A DNA stretch of 37,243 bases from an uncultured archaeon (lineage in GTDB: Archaea > Asgardarchaeota > Lokiarchaeia > Sigyniarchaeales > SOKP01). Positions 17,718 through 29,747 of the stretch are shown one piece after another. The notes under the pieces are model-generated. The model searched no databases and was not told the DNA's origin. It saw only the letters and a list, made by a program, of their open reading frames with translations. Made by a program: the position numbers and the translations under genes. Numbering within the stretch: the stretch's first letter is position 1; the number at the start of each line of letters is the position of its first letter. The stretch lies in contig CAZGJX010000002.1 of NCBI GenBank assembly GCA_964525635.1, forward strand, positions 76,124 to 113,366. The letters are read 5' to 3'.

Positions 17718-20465
17718 TTAAACTAAGTTTAATTCTTCCCTTAATTCGATTAATTTTTGGTTTGATTCATCATCATCTGGATTATTTAATACCCTTTTTT
17801 GATAGAAAATTATATTTTCATATTTTAATTCTAATTTATTAAATATAGTTACCCAAGAATTAAAATTCTCTATCAAATTATTGACTTCTTTATCTTCAGC
17901 AAATGACTTTATATCTTTTTTTTTATCACTCATATAAGATATAGATTTATATTTCTTTAATGTAATACCTTGTTCTTTCAACAATTTTTTATTTATTCTA
18001 TTAATAAAGGCATCTAATTTACTTTTCCAAAAGACATAACTATCATTTATTCTATCGATTGCATCTTGTATAATTTTTATTTCTTTCGGAATAATTGTGG
18101 TTTCTTTATTGAGAATTGGTTTTATTTTATTAAATTCTGAATTGAATCTTCTTACATAATAATCTATAACTTTTTCAAATTCATCTAAATATGCATTATA
18201 ACCTTTAGCAAATACAATTTCATCACTAGTAAAAGTAAGGGTTTCATCATCAAATTTACCTTTAATTTTACCACCTTTATAGATTTCATTGAAAACTTCA
18301 GTAAGAAGGGATATTTCATCATCTGATAATGTCTTTCCGTAAAAAAAATCATGAAAAGAAAATAAAATTTTATTAGAAAGCATTAGATTTTTTAACCCAT
18401 TTTCAGTATAGAACTTAATATCATCATCCTCATAAATAATACCCCTAATTTCACCATTTGTTTGTAAATCCTCGATTAAATCTTTCATAATTTTTGAATT
18501 TATGTCAAAATTTCCCAGAGATATGAAATCAGTGTCTTTATAATCCCTTTTTAAGCTACGTATAATTTCTTTTTTAGCATTATCTATTTTTAAGGGATCA
18601 AATATTAAAAAATCTCCCCTCTTAAGATGATTTAAATTCAGGTCTTTGAGAAAATTAAGAAAGGATTTATAATCCATACCTGTTTTTTCTAAATATTCTG
18701 ATATCTTGATTTGGTCTTTCTTTTGAATCTCTTCTCCTATTAAGTTGATATTTTCATCCATTTTTTGAATAATTTGTTCTCTTTCAATATTTAATTCTCT
18801 GGAAAGTTTATTGATACGATCTAATTTTTCCTGCTGATCTATAATTAGGTTAATATCTTCAATTTTATCTTTCAAATATTTTGAGTAATAAAAAATTTCC
18901 CTGGATTTATTCCAAATTCCACTTCTTTCATCTATTTCTATAGTAAAAATATTCAATAATAATAATTCTTTTATGTTTAATTTTTCAGAAATTTTCTCTA
19001 CATCAAAAAAACCTATAATCTTTGAATTTTCTAATTCTTTTTTAAAACGAAAATTTCCAACATTAGTTAGCCAACTTGATCCTTTATGAAAATTTGTTAA
19101 ATAATCTTTAGGAAGATACTTTATAATCTTAATAAATGAATTTTCTGTAAAATTTTCTCTATAGTTTTTTAAATTAATACAATTCTCCTTTGCAGCTATT
19201 TCTCTTATTTCTTCCTCTATTTTTGATAAAATATAGAATTTTTTCTTTTCCTTGCCTACTATCATCTTATAATTGGATTCTTTTGATATTTTTTTTATAA
19301 TTTGAATTATATAATCTAATGGAAGATAATTAAAATCATCTAAATTAATGTAACCTCTTTCTTTAAAAGAACCAATAAATAAGGATTCAACATAAGGTGA
19401 TGGATAAAAATTTAATTCAGAGAGAAAACCGTTAATATGGTTTAATTTTAATAGAGTATTTAAAAATATTTTTAAATTAGGATTATCTAAAATGTCCGAG
19501 AATTTATCAAGTATCTCTTGATGTGATATCTTCCGATTTTGTTTGAAATAGTCGATTAATTTCTCTCTTTCTAATTCATAGAAATATAATTGGTTTTTTT
19601 CTAAATTTTTAATATAAAAGTAAATTTCTTTATCCTTTAAAATTGTTTTTTTGAAACTGTTCAAGTAGGTTTTAAAATCAATATTTTTATCTTTTTTTAC
19701 TTTTAAAAAATCATATTTGCATTTAATAAAAGTATTCTCCAGATTTTTTAATATGTTATCAATGTTCTCATATTCAAAATCTATATCTTTCATATCTATG
19801 AAGAGTTTTTTAACTAAATTAATCAAACATGATTTGAGATCAGAATTTGCTAAATTATAAAATTCCAAAATCGTTTTGCTGGCTAATTCTCTTAATCTAT
19901 ATAATTGCTTAAAATTATAATTTTCACATTTTTGCAGAAAGCTAATAAGAATAATGATATTTTCTATTTTTCCATCTATAATTTCTATATCCAATGATTT
20001 TATAAGATTATCTTTATAATTACATATTTCTTGTGGCTTTATTTCAACCATATTTTGTAAAAAAAAATAACAATTTTCTCTAACATCTTTAGTTGAGGTT
20101 GATAGCAGTTCAGTGAATTGAGAATAATAATTCCTATTTATAAGGTCAGGATTATTTAAAATAAAAAAACCTAAAATAGTTATTGAATTTAACTTTAATT
20201 TAATATTATTTGAGTAAAGAAAAGGCTCAATTTTATTTATCAAATCAATATTTAATAGGTCTGATTTTTGTTCAGCTAAAATACTTAAAATATAAGTAAT
20301 AGGGATTTTTAGATAATCATCTTGATCTAATAAGTTCTTCAGATCCTCTAATTCCGAAGATATATTTGAATATCTCTCTTTTTGGTAAAGTTTATTTATT
20401 TTTTTTATATATGGAATAAGTTTAGGATAATCTTGAAAATCTTCGATATTAAACATAGTTATCAT
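17718..20465 (-). CDS. large HEAT/ARM-repeat plus tandem winged-helix (PCI/UFL1-like) protein
   Basis: N-terminal HEAT-like helices (LLSTSTKDVRENC); repeated helix-helix-G.I.G..FY units; helical C-terminus. Confidence 0.6.
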   Translation of the reverse strand: MITMFNIEDFQDYPKLIPYIKKINKLYQKERYSNISSELEDLKNLLDQDDYLKIPITYILSILAEQKSDLLNIDLINKIEPFLYSNNIKLKLNSITILGFFILNNPDLINRNYYSQFTELLSTSTKDVRENCYFFLQNMVEIKPQEICNYKDNLIKSLDIEIIDGKIENIIILISFLQKCENYNFKQLYRLRELASKTILEFYNLANSDLKSCLINLVKKLFIDMKDIDFEYENIDNILKNLENTFIKCKYDFLKVKKDKNIDFKTYLNSFKKTILKDKEIYFYIKNLEKNQLYFYELEREKLIDYFKQNRKISHQEILDKFSDILDNPNLKIFLNTLLKLNHINGFLSELNFYPSPYVESLFIGSFKERGYINLDDFNYLPLDYIIQIIKKISKESNYKMIVGKEKKKFYILSKIEEEIREIAAKENCINLKNYRENFTENSFIKIIKYLPKDYLTNFHKGSSWLTNVGNFRFKKELENSKIIGFFDVEKISEKLNIKELLLLNIFTIEIDERSGIWNKSREIFYYSKYLKDKIEDINLIIDQQEKLDRINKLSRELNIEREQIIQKMDENINLIGEEIQKKDQIKISEYLEKTGMDYKSFLNFLKDLNLNHLKRGDFLIFDPLKIDNAKKEIIRSLKRDYKDTDFISLGNFDINSKIMKDLIEDLQTNGEIRGIIYEDDDIKFYTENGLKNLMLSNKILFSFHDFFYGKTLSDDEISLLTEVFNEIYKGGKIKGKFDDETLTFTSDEIVFAKGYNAYLDEFEKVIDYYVRRFNSEFNKIKPILNKETTIIPKEIKIIQDAIDRINDSYVFWKSKLDAFINRINKKLLKEQGITLKKYKSISYMSDKKKDIKSFAEDKEVNNLIENFNSWVTIFNKLELKYENIIFYQKRVLNNPDDDESNQKLIELREELNLV

Positions 20466-20617: not shown

Positions 20618-21277
20618 TCAAACGCTTTCATCTTCATCAACAGAGATATAACTTAAGAGTTTATCAATCCTATCTGCCTTTTTATTTATATTAAGAACAG
20701 TTGGCAAAACGATTACTTCATCTGTTTTTCCCGGTAATAAAGTAATTGATCCTGCTCTTAAGAATAAAAACTCGAAAACATCTGTTATAGTTTTCCTAAT
20801 TCTTAAATTTCCTGCAGGATATCTCTCTGCTGAAGTAATTATACCGCTTTTATGATATATTTCATTCTGTTCAATTTTCCAATAGTTAAATCGAGCATTT
20901 AAAACAACTATGCCTAAAACAAGCCCTAAGATTATTGTCATAATAAAATAGAATTCAGCGGTTATTCCAATATTAAATGGATCTCCAGAACCACCAAGGT
21001 CCACATTGGGTAATATTAGGAATATCATAGCAACAAGTACTATAACAATAAGCAATATTAGTATAAAGAATTTTGTCGATGAGAAGTCAAATGCTACTAC
21101 AAATATATTTGTAAAAAAAACAGCAGTCCAAACATATCCTAAAATATAGTTTGGATCATCCCCGATGACAAACTGAATAATCCATAATACTAAAGATGTT
21201 AAAAACACAGGATAGAAAAATATTACTTTAGGATAATTTCTTAAAAAAACTGCTTCTCCTTTTGTTTTTTGACTCAT
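20618..21277 (-). CDS. four-TM membrane protein with C-terminal bacterial PH-like domain
   Basis: Four hydrophobic segments, then YWKIEQNEIYHKSGII...FLRAGSITL. Confidence 0.6.
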   Translation of the reverse strand: MSQKTKGEAVFLRNYPKVIFFYPVFLTSLVLWIIQFVIGDDPNYILGYVWTAVFFTNIFVVAFDFSSTKFFILILLIVIVLVAMIFLILPNVDLGGSGDPFNIGITAEFYFIMTIILGLVLGIVVLNARFNYWKIEQNEIYHKSGIITSAERYPAGNLRIRKTITDVFEFLFLRAGSITLLPGKTDEVIVLPTVLNINKKADRIDKLLSYISVDEDESV

Positions 21278-22337: not shown

Positions 22338-22961
22338 TTAAAATTCAGTACCACATTTTTTACACACTTTCTTTTTAGCATACATGGGAAGATTACCAAT
22401 ATAACTTAATATTTTTGATTTATCTTCTGTAACTTTTATATCTTTACCAACAGCTCCACATTTAGGACATGTATCTCTCTCTTTTACTTCATCATTACTT
22501 AAAATAACTTCAGCAGGTTTTAATTCTTCTAATTCCTTTTTTGCTTCTTCAAGTTTTTTATTTAAATCTTCAATTACCTTATCTTTCTCTGAATTACTTT
22601 CTTCAAGGTCTTTTATTTTTTCATCTTTTTCTGAAATTGAATCAGTTAATTCTTCAATCTTTTTATTTAATTCTCCCATTTGTGAAATTGATTTGGAATT
22701 TAAGTCATTTGATTCTTCACATTTTTTCTTGAGTTGAGCATTTTCAGTTATTATGTTTTCTAAATTCTTTTTGATCTCATCCATTTCTGAATTTAAACTT
22801 TTTATCATGCTCTCAGAATTTTTAAAATCTTGACTTACCTTTTCATTTATTATTTTTACCTTGTCTAGTTCTTCTTTTGTTTGTTTTAATTCTTCTATAG
22901 TTTCCTCTAATTGTTTTTTAACTAGTTCATTTTCATCTATATCTGACATATTTGTAAACAC
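22338..22961 (-). CDS. coiled-coil protein with C-terminal zinc ribbon (true start possibly ATG at 22949)
   Basis: About 140 aa of heptad-rich E/K/L sequence, then CPKC...CKKCG. Confidence 0.85.
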   Translation of the reverse strand: MFTNMSDIDENELVKKQLEETIEELKQTKEELDKVKIINEKVSQDFKNSESMIKSLNSEMDEIKKNLENIITENAQLKKKCEESNDLNSKSISQMGELNKKIEELTDSISEKDEKIKDLEESNSEKDKVIEDLNKKLEEAKKELEELKPAEVILSNDEVKERDTCPKCGAVGKDIKVTEDKSKILSYIGNLPMYAKKKVCKKCGTEF

Positions 22962-23138: not shown

Positions 23139-23522
23139 ATGAGAGATCATCAAAATATCGATAAATTTAAGCAAAAGATTGATTTTGGAATTAAATTCTG
23201 GTTAAAATTTGATGATAAAAGTATTTTAGGAACTGGATGGGCAAGATTATTGGATATGATTGATAATAATCAAGTAACCTCTCTATCACAGGCTGCTGAA
23301 AAGTGTAATTACTCTTATAAATATGCTTGGAATATCTTAAAAAGAATTGAAAAAAGAACAGGCAACTCTCCTGTTATTACAAGTAAAGGAGGTACAGGTG
23401 GTGGAGGTACTGTAAAATTGAATAATTGGGGGTTATATATTTTAAAGGTATTTAAAATTCTCTCCGAAGATATTGAAAATTTTAAATTAGGACTAGAACA
23501 GAAGATAAAAAAGCTTTATTAA
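23139..23522 (+). CDS. ModE-family winged-helix regulator (DNA-binding domain only)
   Basis: KFWL...LGTGWARLL...SLSQAA...YSYKYAW...TSKGGTGGGG. Confidence 0.88.
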   Translation: MRDHQNIDKFKQKIDFGIKFWLKFDDKSILGTGWARLLDMIDNNQVTSLSQAAEKCNYSYKYAWNILKRIEKRTGNSPVITSKGGTGGGGTVKLNNWGLYILKVFKILSEDIENFKLGLEQKIKKLY

Positions 23523-23595
23523 ATAAATTTAATTGGAATAAAAATTAATTTAATTCGATTAAAACTATCATATTATTAATTGAAAGGATGATATA

Positions 23596-24033
23596 ATGTA
23601 CGAAGAAAAAAATAATTTGAAAAAATTTGGACAAATAAAAATATCTGAAATTATGATAAAAAATCCTTTAAGCATTACTCCTAATGAAAAAATTAGTACA
23701 ACAGAACTTTTAATGGTTAGAAAAAATATTGGAGGTCTTCCAGTAGTTGATTCTTCTGAAAAGAAAGAATTAATCGGGATAATAACTCAGAGAGATATAA
23801 GATTAGCACGGTTTGCAATGTCTTTAGATACACCTAATACTCTTGTAGAAGATTTAATGACATCTAAACCTTTTGTTGCAAAAGAAAGTGATACTATTTT
23901 AGCTACTTTAAAAAAAATGTTTGATAATAATATTGAACGAATGCCTGTTGTGAATAATAATAATGAATTAATTGGATTAGTTTTAGAAAAAACTATTTTA
24001 GAAAGATTATTGAAATATATAACTAATGAATAA
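23596..24033 (+). CDS. CBS domain pair protein
   Basis: IGGLPVVD...LIGIITQRDI and IERMPVVN...LIGLV. Confidence 0.92.
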   Translation: MYEEKNNLKKFGQIKISEIMIKNPLSITPNEKISTTELLMVRKNIGGLPVVDSSEKKELIGIITQRDIRLARFAMSLDTPNTLVEDLMTSKPFVAKESDTILATLKKMFDNNIERMPVVNNNNELIGLVLEKTILERLLKYITNE

Positions 24034-24154: not shown

Positions 24155-25705
24155 ATGTCATTACCTACACCAGGCACTCCAATTATAATTGATATTGGTT
24201 CTGCATATGTTAAAGTGGGATTTGCTGGCGAAACAAGCCCTCGATATATATTTCCTTGTATAACAGGAACAGAAAAATATCACTCTGTTATGGTAGATGT
24301 AGATGCAAGAAATGTTTATGTAGGGCAGGATGCTATGAAAATGAGGGGTGTATTAAAAATCTCTCACCCTATTCAACGGGGATCTATAGCCGATTGGGAT
24401 AGTTACTATCAAATATTAAATCATATCCTATATACTCTTCTAAGAATAGAAAATCCATTAGATTATCCTATTTTATATGTTGAAAATCCATTTGAACCAA
24501 AAGATATAAAAGAATATATTGCAAGAGTATTCTTTGAAACCCATCAGATTAATAGTCTTATTATGGTTCCCTCACCTATTTTATCCTGTTTTTCTGTTGG
24601 ATTAACAACTGGATTAGTTATTGAAAGCGGAGATGGAATCACATGGATTGTTCCAATCATAAATGGACAAATCATATCACAAGCAGTACAAAGACTTAAT
24701 TTAGCCGGTATGGATGTAAGTAATAATTTGAAGGCTTTAATGATGAGAGAAGGAATTAATATTTCATCCTCAGCTCAAGATGAAATTATAAGAGAAATAA
24801 AAGAAAAAAATTGTTATTTTGTTATAGATCCAGAGCATCCCGGAAAGGCTGGTGATAACGTAGAATATCCAATGCCAGATGGTTCTACTGTAAAAATACA
24901 GGATCATATCCTCTATAATGCGACAGAAGTTTTATTCCAACCATCAATGATAGGTTCAAATTCACCTGGAATCCAGCACGCAATAATAACAGCTTTGCAA
25001 AATGTTAATCAAGAGAAGTGGAGTGAATTATTATCTCATATTGTACTTTCTGGAGGAAATCTTTCTCACAGTGGTTTTGAAGAGAGATTAAAAACAGAAT
25101 TGAATATATTATTACCACAATATGGAATAACAGTTAAATCAAAAGGTCGTGAAAAGAAAATAGAACAAAAAGTGGAAAGTCTTGAACCTATAAAAGGAAC
25201 AAAAAAAAACCAAGATAACTGTCCACAATGCGGTACTTTAGTTGATTTAACTAACAATATAACTAATTGTCCACAATGTGGTGCTAATATGCAAATGCCT
25301 CAAATTGATATCAACATAGACCAACAAAGTATTGATGAAACTCAAAACGCTGATTATATAAAATGCCCTAAATGTACAAAAGAAATATCAGATAAAGAAT
25401 CTTTATTTTGTCCATATTGTGGATATAATTTAACGGTGACTCCTACTCCTATTACCAAAAAGGAAATTGAATCAGTAAAGTTAAAGTCATCAGGAAAAAT
25501 TGGATTCAGTGAATATGCAGATTCTAAAAAAAGTGGTTTAAGATTCTTTATTCCTAATAATCTACAACTAGCTGTATATAATGGTGCTACAATTTTGGGA
25601 AGTTTGCCTTCTTTTAGAAATTTATTTATAACACGAGAACAATTTGAAATAAATAAAGAAATATTACATACAGATCTTTCTCAAATATTTGCAAATTATA
25701 CTTGA
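24155..25705 (+). CDS. actin-related protein with internal double zinc-ribbon insertion
   Basis: IIIDIGSAYVKVGFAGE, YVGQDA, FFETH, TTGLVIESGDG, IIREIKEK, YPMPDG, EVLFQPS, IVLSGG, GATILGSL; insert with four CxxC. Confidence 0.93.
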   Translation: MSLPTPGTPIIIDIGSAYVKVGFAGETSPRYIFPCITGTEKYHSVMVDVDARNVYVGQDAMKMRGVLKISHPIQRGSIADWDSYYQILNHILYTLLRIENPLDYPILYVENPFEPKDIKEYIARVFFETHQINSLIMVPSPILSCFSVGLTTGLVIESGDGITWIVPIINGQIISQAVQRLNLAGMDVSNNLKALMMREGINISSSAQDEIIREIKEKNCYFVIDPEHPGKAGDNVEYPMPDGSTVKIQDHILYNATEVLFQPSMIGSNSPGIQHAIITALQNVNQEKWSELLSHIVLSGGNLSHSGFEERLKTELNILLPQYGITVKSKGREKKIEQKVESLEPIKGTKKNQDNCPQCGTLVDLTNNITNCPQCGANMQMPQIDINIDQQSIDETQNADYIKCPKCTKEISDKESLFCPYCGYNLTVTPTPITKKEIESVKLKSSGKIGFSEYADSKKSGLRFFIPNNLQLAVYNGATILGSLPSFRNLFITREQFEINKEILHTDLSQIFANYT

Positions 25706-26017: not shown

Positions 26018-27106
26018 TTGAAAAGGAAAAACTATAAAAGATTGATTATATGCTTTTCTATGATATCTTTATTAATAATAACTCCATTGTCGTCTGCTAA
26101 AACGAGAAATAATTACTTAAAAAATTTTATTTTAGATAATAGGATTTCTGATTCTGGTGGATTTTCAAATGTTGTTGGTTCATGGTATGATTATGAAGTA
26201 ACATCTTATGCATTTGATATTTTAGATCATTATGATTTACTTAAAGAAAAAGTTGATCGTCCTGATACAGGAGAAAACATTGCTAAACTCATTAGTGATG
26301 CTATAACAAATGAATTCATTGATCTTAATATTCTTTATTTCCTACTGAATTCTTTAAATTGGATAAATCAAATTAATACAGCAATTAATTCGACTGTGAA
26401 AAGTAAAATTATAACATATCTCAATCAAACAGAACTAACAACTGGGGGATTTACAATAACTAATACAACTTCTTCACCAAATATTATTTCAACCTATTAT
26501 GGAATTAAAAGTTCTGAATTAATCGGACGTCCACTCAATTACACATATAGGAATATAATTTGGATTTTAGATTGTTATAATGCAGATGGAGGATTTGGAG
26601 GAAATGAAATTATGCAATCGACCCTTTTTACAACATACTATGCTGCTTTATCATTATCGGAATTAGGAAGTTTCTATAACTTATCTACTTTGGAAAATAT
26701 TCTTGAGTATACTAAAGCACATTATATTTCTACTGGAGGTTATAAACCTGACTTAGCTTCAGACATGGCTCTTTTAAGTAGTACATCTTATTGTATAAAA
26801 CTTATTTCAATGATTCCTGATGCTACGTATAATAGTAAAAGCTCAACAATTAGATGGATTTTAAATCAACAAAATATTATTGATGGGGGTTTCTCAAATC
26901 CATCTACTGAAGAAGAAATTAAAAGATCCTCTGTGATTTGTTCCTATTATGCATTCAATGCATTAAGAGAGTTAAGTGCTTTAAGTTATTTAGATGAAGA
27001 CATTGGAATAACGGAATTTAATTGGATTGTATTGCTAATTGTATTAGTGGTTATAGGAGTTGCTGTCGCTTTAGTTTTCTATATATGGAAAAGAAGACAA
27101 ATTTGA
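26018..27106 (+). CDS. secreted, membrane-anchored prenyltransferase-beta/squalene-cyclase repeat (alpha/alpha barrel) protein
   Basis: TTG start, signal peptide, five GGF/GGY repeats followed by TYY/SYY helices, C-terminal TM then WKRR. Confidence 0.8.
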   Translation: MKRKNYKRLIICFSMISLLIITPLSSAKTRNNYLKNFILDNRISDSGGFSNVVGSWYDYEVTSYAFDILDHYDLLKEKVDRPDTGENIAKLISDAITNEFIDLNILYFLLNSLNWINQINTAINSTVKSKIITYLNQTELTTGGFTITNTTSSPNIISTYYGIKSSELIGRPLNYTYRNIIWILDCYNADGGFGGNEIMQSTLFTTYYAALSLSELGSFYNLSTLENILEYTKAHYISTGGYKPDLASDMALLSSTSYCIKLISMIPDATYNSKSSTIRWILNQQNIIDGGFSNPSTEEEIKRSSVICSYYAFNALRELSALSYLDEDIGITEFNWIVLLIVLVVIGVAVALVFYIWKRRQI

Positions 27107-28090: not shown

Positions 28091-28552
28091 ATGGCTGTAC
28101 TTGAAATTGGAATTAATTTAGGAAATAGGAATATCTTTGAAATTCAATACTATACAGCTTCAACTAATCCCTTAGATCCTGACTTAAGAGCGGGATTTCT
28201 TTCTGCATTAGAAAGTTTCACATCAGAAGTTTTCGGTGATGATATAAATGTTGTTTCCTTGGCTTCTTTTAAATTAGTTTGTTATTCAGAATCGATTACT
28301 TTGCCTCTAGCAGAAGAAGCAGGTAGTAAACAAGCTTTATTATATTATGCAATTATTGAAAAAGAAACTGATACAGATGTTGTAAAAAAACATTTAATAG
28401 AAATTAATAAACACTTTTTAAACCGTTTTTCTTTGAATGATATCTTTTCTAAAAAGAAAAAATTTTTTGAAAAGAAGTTCACTGAAAGAATAGATAGTAT
28501 TTTAGGAGATTTAAAGTTAAAGACGGAGGATAGATTCAGATCTATATTTTAA
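28091..28552 (+). CDS. longin-like domain protein
   Basis: LRAGFLSALESFTSEVFGDDINVVSL matches the longin alpha1-beta3 pattern common in Asgard proteins; beta-beta-alpha-beta-beta-beta-alpha-alpha layout. Confidence 0.72.
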   Translation: MAVLEIGINLGNRNIFEIQYYTASTNPLDPDLRAGFLSALESFTSEVFGDDINVVSLASFKLVCYSESITLPLAEEAGSKQALLYYAIIEKETDTDVVKKHLIEINKHFLNRFSLNDIFSKKKKFFEKKFTERIDSILGDLKLKTEDRFRSIF

Positions 28553-28571: not shown

Positions 28572-29747
28572 TTGTCTTCTAACATCGGTCCCGAAGCAAA
28601 TGCAGCATATCAAAAATATCTGGATGCTGAATCCCTCGAGGAACAAATCAGATGTCTTGAAGAATTTATATCTTTAGTTCCTAAACATAAAGCAACAGAA
28701 AAAATTGTTGCATTAAATAAGTCTAAACTCGCTAAACTTAAAAGACAATTGGAGATAAAAAAAAAAAAATCACCCACTAAAGTTGTTAGTCCATTTTCTA
28801 TAAAAAAAGAGGGTATACAAATAATATTAATAAGTGATTATTATACTCCAGGGGTAGGGAAAACATCATTACTCAATTTTTTAACGAAAGCTGCCAAAGA
28901 TAAAATTGGTAGTTTTAATGCTCTCCCTGAAATAGGTATATATAATTATGAAAAGATAAGATTTCAAATTGTTGATATGCCTTCATTAATGAAAGGTGCA
29001 TCTAAGGGAGTTGCAAATGGAAAAGAAATAATATCACAAATTAGAGCATGTGACCTAATTTGTTTATGTATCGATTTAACGAGAAATATTGATGAACAAA
29101 TCGATTTATTATTTACAGAACTAAATAATGCAGACGTTAAATTAAATGAACCTCCACCTCCAATTGAGATTGAGAAAACCGGTTCTAATAATATTCAACT
29201 TTTTTATTTAACGACCGAATCTAAGGAAAATATGGAATTATCAGATAAGATAAAGGAGATTATTCGAGCTAATGGAATACAAAATTGTATTGTAAAATTA
29301 TATGGAAGAATAACAATTGATCAAATTCTTGACAAATTAAACCATTCTGTTGTCTATAAAAAAGCAATTATAATTGGAACTAAAGGTGATCTTCCCCATA
29401 CAGAAGAAAAGTTTGAGTTATTGGAAAAAAAGTATTCATATAATTTTAGGTTGGTAGCAACTAGTGTTCATAAAAGTATTTTTCCAGATAATTTTGGAGA
29501 ATTAGTATTACAATTGTTAAATAAAATTAGAATATATACTATGAATTCAGGTATTGTGGCTGAAAGACCCCTAATTATGAATGAAGAGGCAATGGTAAAA
29601 GATGTTGCATTGAAAATACACAGAACTTTTGTAGAGTTATTCGATTTTGCTACCGTTATAAGAGAGTCTGCTCGACAAAAACGTAAAAAAGTTGGTTTAG
29701 ATTATGAATTAGAGGATAAAGATAAAATTGAAATTCATACCATTTAA
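28572..29747 (+). CDS. DRG/OBG-family GTPase with C-terminal TGS domain, degenerate G motifs
   Basis: PKHKATE, VGKTSLL, QIVDMP, GASKG..NGKEII, VKDVALKIH, VGLDYELEDKDKIEI. Confidence 0.88.
   Translation: MSSNIGPEANAAYQKYLDAESLEEQIRCLEEFISLVPKHKATEKIVALNKSKLAKLKRQLEIKKKKSPTKVVSPFSIKKEGIQIILISDYYTPGVGKTSLLNFLTKAAKDKIGSFNALPEIGIYNYEKIRFQIVDMPSLMKGASKGVANGKEIISQIRACDLICLCIDLTRNIDEQIDLLFTELNNADVKLNEPPPPIEIEKTGSNNIQLFYLTTESKENMELSDKIKEIIRANGIQNCIVKLYGRITIDQILDKLNHSVVYKKAIIIGTKGDLPHTEEKFELLEKKYSYNFRLVATSVHKSIFPDNFGELVLQLLNKIRIYTMNSGIVAERPLIMNEEAMVKDVALKIHRTFVELFDFATVIRESARQKRKKVGLDYELEDKDKIEIHTI

Follow-up and report, generated by a model that had tools for sequence, protein, structure and literature searches.

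The locus and its actin paralog

The window analyzed here, a 37,243-nucleotide stretch of a Lokiarchaeia contig, carries an actin-related protein of 516 residues (hereafter the 516-aa ARP), residues 1-168 of which had been covered by an earlier reading of the sequence. The gene and the elements that set it apart from actin are as follows.

24155..25705, plus strand: 516-aa ARP gene, ortholog of Lokiarchaeum ossiferum UYP44711.1 (PF00022, E 1.5e-73)
25121..25534, plus strand: insert of ~138 aa in subdomain 3 (actin 322-327), on the barbed face; linkers modeled at low confidence
25220..25279, plus strand: C4 zinc ribbon 1, four invariant Cys
25364..25420, plus strand: C4 zinc ribbon 2, four invariant Cys
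25535..25702, plus strand: actin C-terminal segment resumes (actin ~328-375); the C terminus is unlike that of actin

The protein matches PF00022 over residues 8-331 at 248 bits (cut-off 27), and its closest solved relative is HC1 actin (PDB 9wc4, E 3.7e-74), followed by eukaryotic actins. In HMMER alignments to three PDB actins the match breaks off at residue 322 and restarts near 462; in between, residues 356-426 are matched by zinc-ribbon families. These ribbons are of the generic DZR type, and a relationship to the Zn domain of the Loki 2DGels was rejected. The AlphaFold model has a mean pLDDT of 80, with values above 90 in the core, including the blocks that hold the four substituted sites discussed below, and below 50 at the tip of the D-loop and in the linkers of the insert; a Foldseek search with it recovered actin at a target TM of ~0.9. 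By both fold and profile, the protein is thus a member of the actin family, of which the genome encodes four: a Lokiactin (P0121), the 516-aa ARP, and two further ARPs, P0122 and P0123. A pseudogene or an assembly error was rejected, as reading frames are intact and identity among 120 ortholog clusters is 55-82%. A scan of the window for promoters and terminators with a bacterial consensus stayed at chance level (25 hits versus 30.8 expected).

An altered hydrolytic site

The nucleotide-binding elements and the substituted sites map as follows.

24191..24214, plus strand: phosphate loop 1 (D13-K20 = actin D11-K18); S14 kept in the 516-aa ARP, E/Q in distant orthologs; G15 replaced by A
24377..24379, plus strand: R75 = actin H73, sensor loop; 135/135 orthologs
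24572..24574, plus strand: S140 = actin Q137; S/T/A in 135/135, Q in none
24623..24646, plus strand: phosphate loop 2; E157 = D154 (130/135), G159-D160-G161 kept, W164 = H161
24623-24625, plus strand: codon of E157 (actin D154)
24644-24646, plus strand: codon of W164 (actin H161)
25049..25060, plus strand: adenosine loop; G301-G302 kept, T/S303 replaced by N

The sequence-only reading had proposed that Q137 is replaced by S, D154 by E, H161 by W, and H73 by R. We checked these sites in the HMMER alignments to the three PDB actins and in a BLASTP alignment to the Lokiactin of the same genome, any of which could have placed Gln or His there. All four pairwise alignments are without gaps around the four sites, so that misalignment was rejected and R75, S140, E157, and W164 stand. 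Among 120 near orthologs, R75 is found in 120, E157 in 118, and W164 in 116, and position 140 is T in 62, S in 55, and A in three, never Q. With 15 distant orthologs added, R at actin position 73 and a small residue (S, T, or A) at 137 extend to all 135, and E at 154 to 130; position 161 among the distant set is T, H, S, N, W, Y, or F, and H161 is retained in the L. ossiferum ortholog. H161W was hence rejected as a hallmark of all orthologs. Lokiactins, for comparison, keep Q137, H73, D154, and H161 in 87/87. Judged from this conservation, the four substitutions reflect neither chance nor decay and are conserved by selection.

The lytic water of actin is positioned by Q137 and activated by H161 (PMC3587832), and actin carrying Q137A/D154A/H161A binds nucleotide, does not hydrolyze it, and polymerizes at nearly normal rates (PMC6867828). 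The three sites changed in that ATPase-dead mutant are changed in the 516-aa ARP as well, and Q137 is missing in every ortholog; the little hydrolysis predicted by the earlier reading is therefore supported, and the 516-aa ARP is likely to hydrolyze little ATP. The loss of Q137 as a bare observation is ordinary, given that all three ARPs of the genome (the 516-aa ARP, P0122, and P0123) lack it. H73R, which had been counted among the lost hydrolytic residues, does not belong there: H73 is a residue of the sensor loop, and H73R often occurs alongside Q137 in divergent actins, nine database representatives combining the two. A search for literature on H73R actins returned no relevant paper, nor did we find one on the insert or the substitutions in the open-access literature, a scope that misses most subscription papers.

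Nucleotide binding, also part of the earlier reading, is plausible for the 516-aa ARP itself, which keeps D11, G13, S14, K18, G156, D157, G158, K213, E214, G301, and G302 and has both phosphate loops and the adenosine loop, with D11, G13, K18, G156, G158, G301, and G302 invariant among orthologs. It is less sure family-wide: distant orthologs replace S14 by E or Q and D157 by E, C, T, or S, and because of this variation ATP binding may be uneven across the family. The change at S14 affects 13/13 distant orthologs with a full N terminus (loci L035-L050), and the new residue adjoins the invariant R73; we speculate that an E/Q14-R73 salt bridge might fill the γ-phosphate site in these proteins.

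One alternative is that the active site has been rewired rather than silenced, the longer E157 side chain and a water in place of the Gln side chain allowing slow or partner-triggered hydrolysis. The conservation of E154 in 130/135 orthologs and the retention of H161 in three distant orthologs and in L. ossiferum point in this direction, as do two precedents: Q137A actin has low activity, with a water taking the place of the side chain and zero hydrolysis not demonstrated (PMC10062479), and a weak, low basal ATPase is found in Arp8, where positions 73, 137, and 161 hold R, E, and S (PMC3510490). Against it, position 161 drifts among seven residues (W, T, H, S, N, Y, F), as would a site that has no part in catalysis, the distant orthologs vary at S14 and D157, and the paralog P0122 likewise has E154. 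We consider it decidedly unlikely, and it can be combined with any of the binding models below.

Whatever its exact rate, low hydrolysis alone says nothing on whether the protein caps or polymerizes, since the ATPase-dead mutant polymerizes normally and all three ARPs of the genome lack Q137. The earlier step from the active site to a template or cap thus does not follow, and the question has to be put to the binding faces.

Orthologs and taxonomic spread

Named homologs of the 516-aa ARP are from Lokiarchaeota/Promethearchaeota. Orthologs of ~490-570 aa are present in ~119 of 126 genomes of its own taxonomic family and in the three other families of the order, making it an order-wide, single-copy gene within one order of Lokiarchaeia. 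Nothing above Lokiactin-level matches was seen in seven genomes sampled from other orders of the class, and no full-length match was returned from a sample of 123 further Asgard genomes. In this sampling, members came from one order only, so the family has little direct bearing on the eukaryotic ancestor. In a FastTree phylogeny (midpoint root, deeper branches not resolved), the orthologs form one clade with UYP44711.1 at a support of 1.0, outside the Lokiactin clade.

The RT-qPCR primers of a study of L. ossiferum (PMC9834061) match one of our loci (L168, genome G152) exactly, which identifies the ortholog there as UYP44711.1; by primers and tree, P0122 corresponds to UYP44126.1 and P0123 to UYP47647.1. 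That study assayed the UYP44711.1 transcript, found Lokiactin transcripts several-fold above those of the other actin homologs, and reported neither a residue analysis nor a function for UYP44711.1. The family is therefore already on record as an Asgard ARP without an assigned function; the H161W pattern is family-specific. UYP44711.1 and the 516-aa ARP are about one-third identical and share R73, S137, E154, M44, and R62 and the same neighbor genes; the 516-aa ARP displays the R73, the small residue at 137, the zinc-ribbon insert, and the downstream toroid gene of the UYP44711.1 type. UYP44711.1 differs in its length of 499 aa, in having two CxxC motifs instead of four, in keeping H161, and in Q14 and C157.

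Two CxxC motifs, probably forming one ribbon, are also seen elsewhere among orthologs of family f3 and some of f2 (L040-L042, L141, and L047, besides L168 of L. ossiferum). In one genome (G144, contig C37), a second ARP copy of 385 aa (L038:2276-3430, minus strand) lacks the zinc-ribbon insert altogether; its D-loop is shortened, its branch long, and its neighbors different, and the normal copy is also present.

Opposite constraints on the two filament faces

The segments that correspond to the filament contacts of actin are the following.

24266..24325, plus strand: D-loop, residues 38-57; K41, Y42, V45, and M46 = actin 39, 40, 43, and 44; under strong conservation; the monomer model shows a disordered tip
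24341..24352, plus strand: MRGV motif (actin 61-64), a nearly invariant contact of the pointed face
24656..24679, plus strand: W-loop (actin 165-172), degenerate; Q172 stands at actin Y/F169, aromatic in no family member, and E167 is replaced by N
24767..24787, plus strand: pointed-face segment in subdomain 4 (actin 202-208), conserved in its own family except for the loss of E205
24875..24883, plus strand: PDG = actin 243-245; invariant pointed-face contact
25007..25024, plus strand: barbed-face segment, actin 286-291; 287 and 288 variable, R290 replaced by W

The D-loop had been described as actin-like and as aligning to actin without gaps. It is full-length and indeed gap-free against eukaryotic actin (7/20 identical); against Lokiactin and HC1 actin, however, it is two residues shorter, and its conserved donor residues (K39, Y40, and a hydrophobic residue at 61) follow the Lokiactin rather than the eukaryotic versions. 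The broader proposal of filament-type contacts holds for one face and fails for the other. Using the long-pitch contact pairs listed by Chou and Pollard (10.1101/309534), we found that pointed-face (donor) residues are kept (K39 in 118/120, Y40 in 119/120, M44 in 114/120, and R62 and D244 in 120/120), whereas on the barbed (acceptor) face position 169 is never F or Y (it is Q, K, or V), 287 and 288 are variable, R290 is W in 120/120, and E167 is N. Some barbed-side residues (D286, F143, T148, and L346) are retained in part or completely.

Column conservation is 0.93 for the pointed and 0.69 for the barbed face in the 516-aa ARP family, as against 0.82 and 0.88 in 87 Lokiactins; in this count columns 324-326 of the barbed set fell on the insert, and leaving them out gives the same result. 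Site rates on a tree of 52 orthologs are 0.38 for the pointed and 1.31 for the barbed face, with an all-site mean of 0.96 (Mann-Whitney p < 1e-4, in a test that treats sites as units though they are not independent, with site sets derived from eukaryotic F-actin); restricted to surface sites, they are 0.41 and 1.55 (p = 0.0005). This slow-pointed, fast-barbed pattern was not found in Lokiactin (0.78 versus 0.43) or in the two other paralogs (0.65 versus 0.74 and 0.72 versus 0.59). The P0122 family has lost both M44 and R62 while keeping Y169, D286, D288, and R290, so that M44 and R62 are dispensable for the fold. Conservation of the pointed face shows that it binds something but does not name the partner.

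A subunit of this kind would be able to enter a barbed end and unable to receive the next subunit, and the asymmetry of the faces thus favors a barbed-end terminator. It argues against an Arp2/Arp3-like template whose barbed face starts a daughter filament, as such a template requires the opposite face to be conserved. Of the two roles raised in the earlier reading, a cap, here at the barbed end, is accordingly the one favored by face conservation, the template being disfavored by its degenerate barbed face. Some observations do speak for a template: the insert falls at the loop where Arp3 bears a short insert, and published trees place the three L. ossiferum paralogs with ARPs. Yet Arp2 and Arp3 keep Q137 and H161, which the 516-aa ARP has lost, and P0122 fits the part better with its retained barbed residues and a proline-rich WH2-like gene upstream in 25/33 loci. 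We regard a template role as very improbable.

It could also be envisaged that the protein forms a stable filament of its own, or co-polymerizes with Lokiactin, through a remodeled barbed face (invariant W290 and N167) with the ribbons outside. ATPase-dead actin polymerizes normally (PMC6867828); W289, N170, G171, and F146 on the barbed side are invariant or nearly so in its own family; and in the model the insert, being on flexible linkers, could point outward. A homopolymer nonetheless requires both faces to be constrained, and here the barbed face evolves faster than the average site, W289 is lost in distant orthologs, and abundance lies far below that of Lokiactin. This makes a filament quite improbable.

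Abundance and Lokiactin coimmunoprecipitation

In the supplement of a proteomic study of L. ossiferum (10.1101/2025.11.30.690169), GNAMCCOK_01003 (31.93 kDa) and GNAMCCOK_01004 (41.88 kDa) fit by mass FolD and the product of the toroid gene, from which GNAMCCOK_01005 can be taken to be the ARP ortholog. It was detected in 16/16 proteome columns with a mean of 16.12, versus 21.69 for Lokiactin, a gap of ~5.6 log units, or ~47-fold if the values are log2, the sheet stating no unit. Such a low ratio of ARP to Lokiactin would suit a factor acting at filament ends.

The cytoskeletal candidates enriched in the Lokiactin coimmunoprecipitation of the same study are one profilin, five gelsolins, and an ARF GTPase, with no ARP named (10.1101/2025.11.30.690169). 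GNAMCCOK_01005 is absent among the rows listed (ratios +10 to -1.06), although the less abundant FolD is present there. A stable, abundant complex with soluble Lokiactin is made less likely by this absence. Against a cap retained in a pelleted or membrane fraction the evidence is weak, and the ortholog concerned shares only about one-third identity with the 516-aa ARP. GNAMCCOK_00418 (UYP44126.1, the P0122 ortholog) had no row among the proteomics rows listed.

The absence of the ARP ortholog from the coimmunoprecipitation rows is in line with a further alternative, that of a scaffolding pseudo-ATPase within a closed complex. The pointed face would then lie on the barbed face of another ARP (of the UYP44126/P0122 or the UYP47647/P0123 type) or on an unrelated protein, and not on a Lokiactin filament. 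This would liken it to the nuclear Arps, which act as nonpolymerizing subunits: Arp4 and Arp8 show similar active-site changes and inserts and do not polymerize (PMC3510490). A complementary partner also exists, as P0122 and P0123 keep an aromatic residue at 169 and a conserved barbed face. Conversely, the donor residues mirror those of Lokiactin, the ARP genes are unlinked, and no P0122 ortholog turned up in a search of four f3 genomes (63-88% complete), each of which encodes the 516-aa ARP type. A closed complex strikes us as somewhat unlikely, yet it is the chief competitor of the cap proposed below.

A putative barbed-end cap

Taking these findings together, we tentatively propose, at rather less than even probability, that the 516-aa ARP is a low-abundance, one-sided actin paralog that ends an actin-type polymer, most likely the Lokiactin filament, at its barbed end. 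The protein would very probably bind nucleotide and hydrolyze little of it, and would thereby lack a built-in ageing clock. Like a normal incoming subunit, it would probably dock with its D-loop and subdomain 4 against the subdomain 1/3 face that an actin-fold partner leaves exposed. Being unable to take the next subunit on that strand, it would stop growth of the strand. That the partner is Lokiactin, and with it the whole chain of events, remains tentative at the same level as the proposal itself. The zinc ribbons on their flexible linkers might, more speculatively, tether the capped end to some partner.

Several points stand against a cap. E205 has disappeared, lateral contacts are kept only to a moderate degree, and the D-loop falls two residues short of that of Lokiactin. 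Family f2 has a 3-aa deletion near 202. In addition, a single ARP can obstruct no more than one strand.

By the features tested here, the 516-aa ARP is neither a Lokiactin nor an Arp2/3-type template. It shares with Lokiactin (HC1 actin being the solved relative) and eukaryotic actin the fold, 38% identity over the core, the phosphate and adenosine loops, the D-loop core, and the 61-64 and 243-245 motifs. It has the pointed-face contacts of a conventional actin (M44, R62, D244) and lacks those of the barbed face (Y/F169, D288, R290), whereas Lokiactins keep F169 and D288 in 87/87 and R290 in 98% and have no 138-aa insert. It lies in a clade of its own, in a genome that has its own Lokiactin.

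The likeness to the nuclear Arps is one of design, not descent, an altered hydrolysis site being combined with retained nucleotide loops. Arp4 has Thr at Q137, where the family has Thr or Ser, and does not hydrolyze; Arp8 shares Arg at 73 and a non-His residue at 161; and both bear a large loop insert (PMC3510490). There is no sign of orthology to either in a tree that holds no named Arp4 or Arp8 sequence. The inserts of Arp4 and Arp8 disable filament contacts, in contrast to the actin-like D-loop that the 516-aa ARP keeps under strong constraint.

Arp2/Arp3 and the dynactin subunit Arp11 are actin paralogs that sit at the pointed end of a filament and present their barbed face. The 516-aa ARP would have the opposite polarity, and differs from the nucleators Arp2 and Arp3, which keep Q137 and H161 (PMC3587832), in having the faster-evolving face on the barbed side (1.31 versus 0.38). 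Capping protein and the gelsolins, including the Asgard 2DGels (PMC9433394), do the same proposed job of blocking the barbed end with unrelated folds. The 2DGels are controlled by calcium and are enriched in the Lokiactin coimmunoprecipitation, whereas the ARP ortholog is not among the rows listed there.

The prevailing view is that Asgard actin is regulated chiefly by profilins and gelsolins (PMC13716822), and none of the three L. ossiferum ARPs has been given a function. New in the present work are the asymmetry of the faces, the link to the UYP44711.1 proteomics, and the comparison with the coimmunoprecipitation. The residue pattern yields a specific, testable prediction for one ARP in cultured L. 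ossiferum, namely a nonhydrolyzing subunit that binds by its pointed face only. If it is a barbed-end cap, it would be an actin paralog of a polarity opposite to that of Arp2/3 and Arp11 and would show that end regulation can arise by duplication of actin. By extension, polarity-specific end pieces might have evolved from actin in this order of Lokiarchaeia, the zinc-ribbon ARP as barbed-end cap, a role that to our knowledge no eukaryotic Arp has, and the UYP44126/P0122 type as pointed-end template; we hold this to be unlikely, but if true, the pair would have arisen independently as a counterpart of the combination of Arp2/3 and capping protein.

P0122 (L002:1480-2595, minus strand; genome G000, contig C8), the ortholog of UYP44126.1, shows the reverse pattern at the named contacts and is a candidate pointed-end template; its substitutions S14Q, Q137D/G, and H161R are found in 45/45. 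A statistical mirror image was not found, both faces of P0122 being conserved and the mirror limited to the named contact residues. The gene upstream in the 25 loci mentioned above (L002:3650-4081, minus strand, and 24 others) encodes a proline-rich protein that ends in a nearly invariant WH2-like motif; the flanking sequence of three f2 loci showed no such gene. The UYP44126 ARP gene of L. ossiferum sits immediately downstream of a gene for a small GTPase, in the same orientation (L182; G152 457728-458301).

Gene neighborhood

The gene that follows the 516-aa ARP is conserved in position across the order.

26018..27106, plus strand: α-α toroid (PF00432) protein gene with a predicted signal peptide and a C-terminal membrane helix; next gene in 44/47 loci

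GNAMCCOK_01004, the toroid ortholog, reaches about the abundance of Lokiactin, shows no enrichment in the coimmunoprecipitation, and may be a major surface protein. Because of the difference in abundance (21.46 for the toroid versus 16.12 for the ARP), we rejected a stoichiometric complex of the two. The ARP-toroid gene block may be conserved by inertia, since two further neighbors, an upstream gene for a ModE-like wHTH protein and FolD on the downstream side, are often kept too, and a functional link between ARP and toroid is putative. The ModE-like wHTH and CBS-pair genes lie at 23139-24033 (plus strand), the former being kept in f1 and most f2 loci and the latter in f1 only.

Three further ORFs of the window have no Pfam match at E 0.01: 17718-20465 (minus strand, 915 aa), 20618-21277 (minus strand, 219 aa, membrane), and 28091-28552 (plus strand, 153 aa), the last preceding a DRG-type GTPase gene (28572-29747). 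The gene at 22338-22961 (minus strand) encodes a coiled-coil protein whose C-terminal C4 zinc domain carries an extended loop with a Tyr, resembling the Zn domain described at the C terminus of Loki 2DGels; seven further copies of this domain are encoded in the genome, nearly all of them C-terminal.
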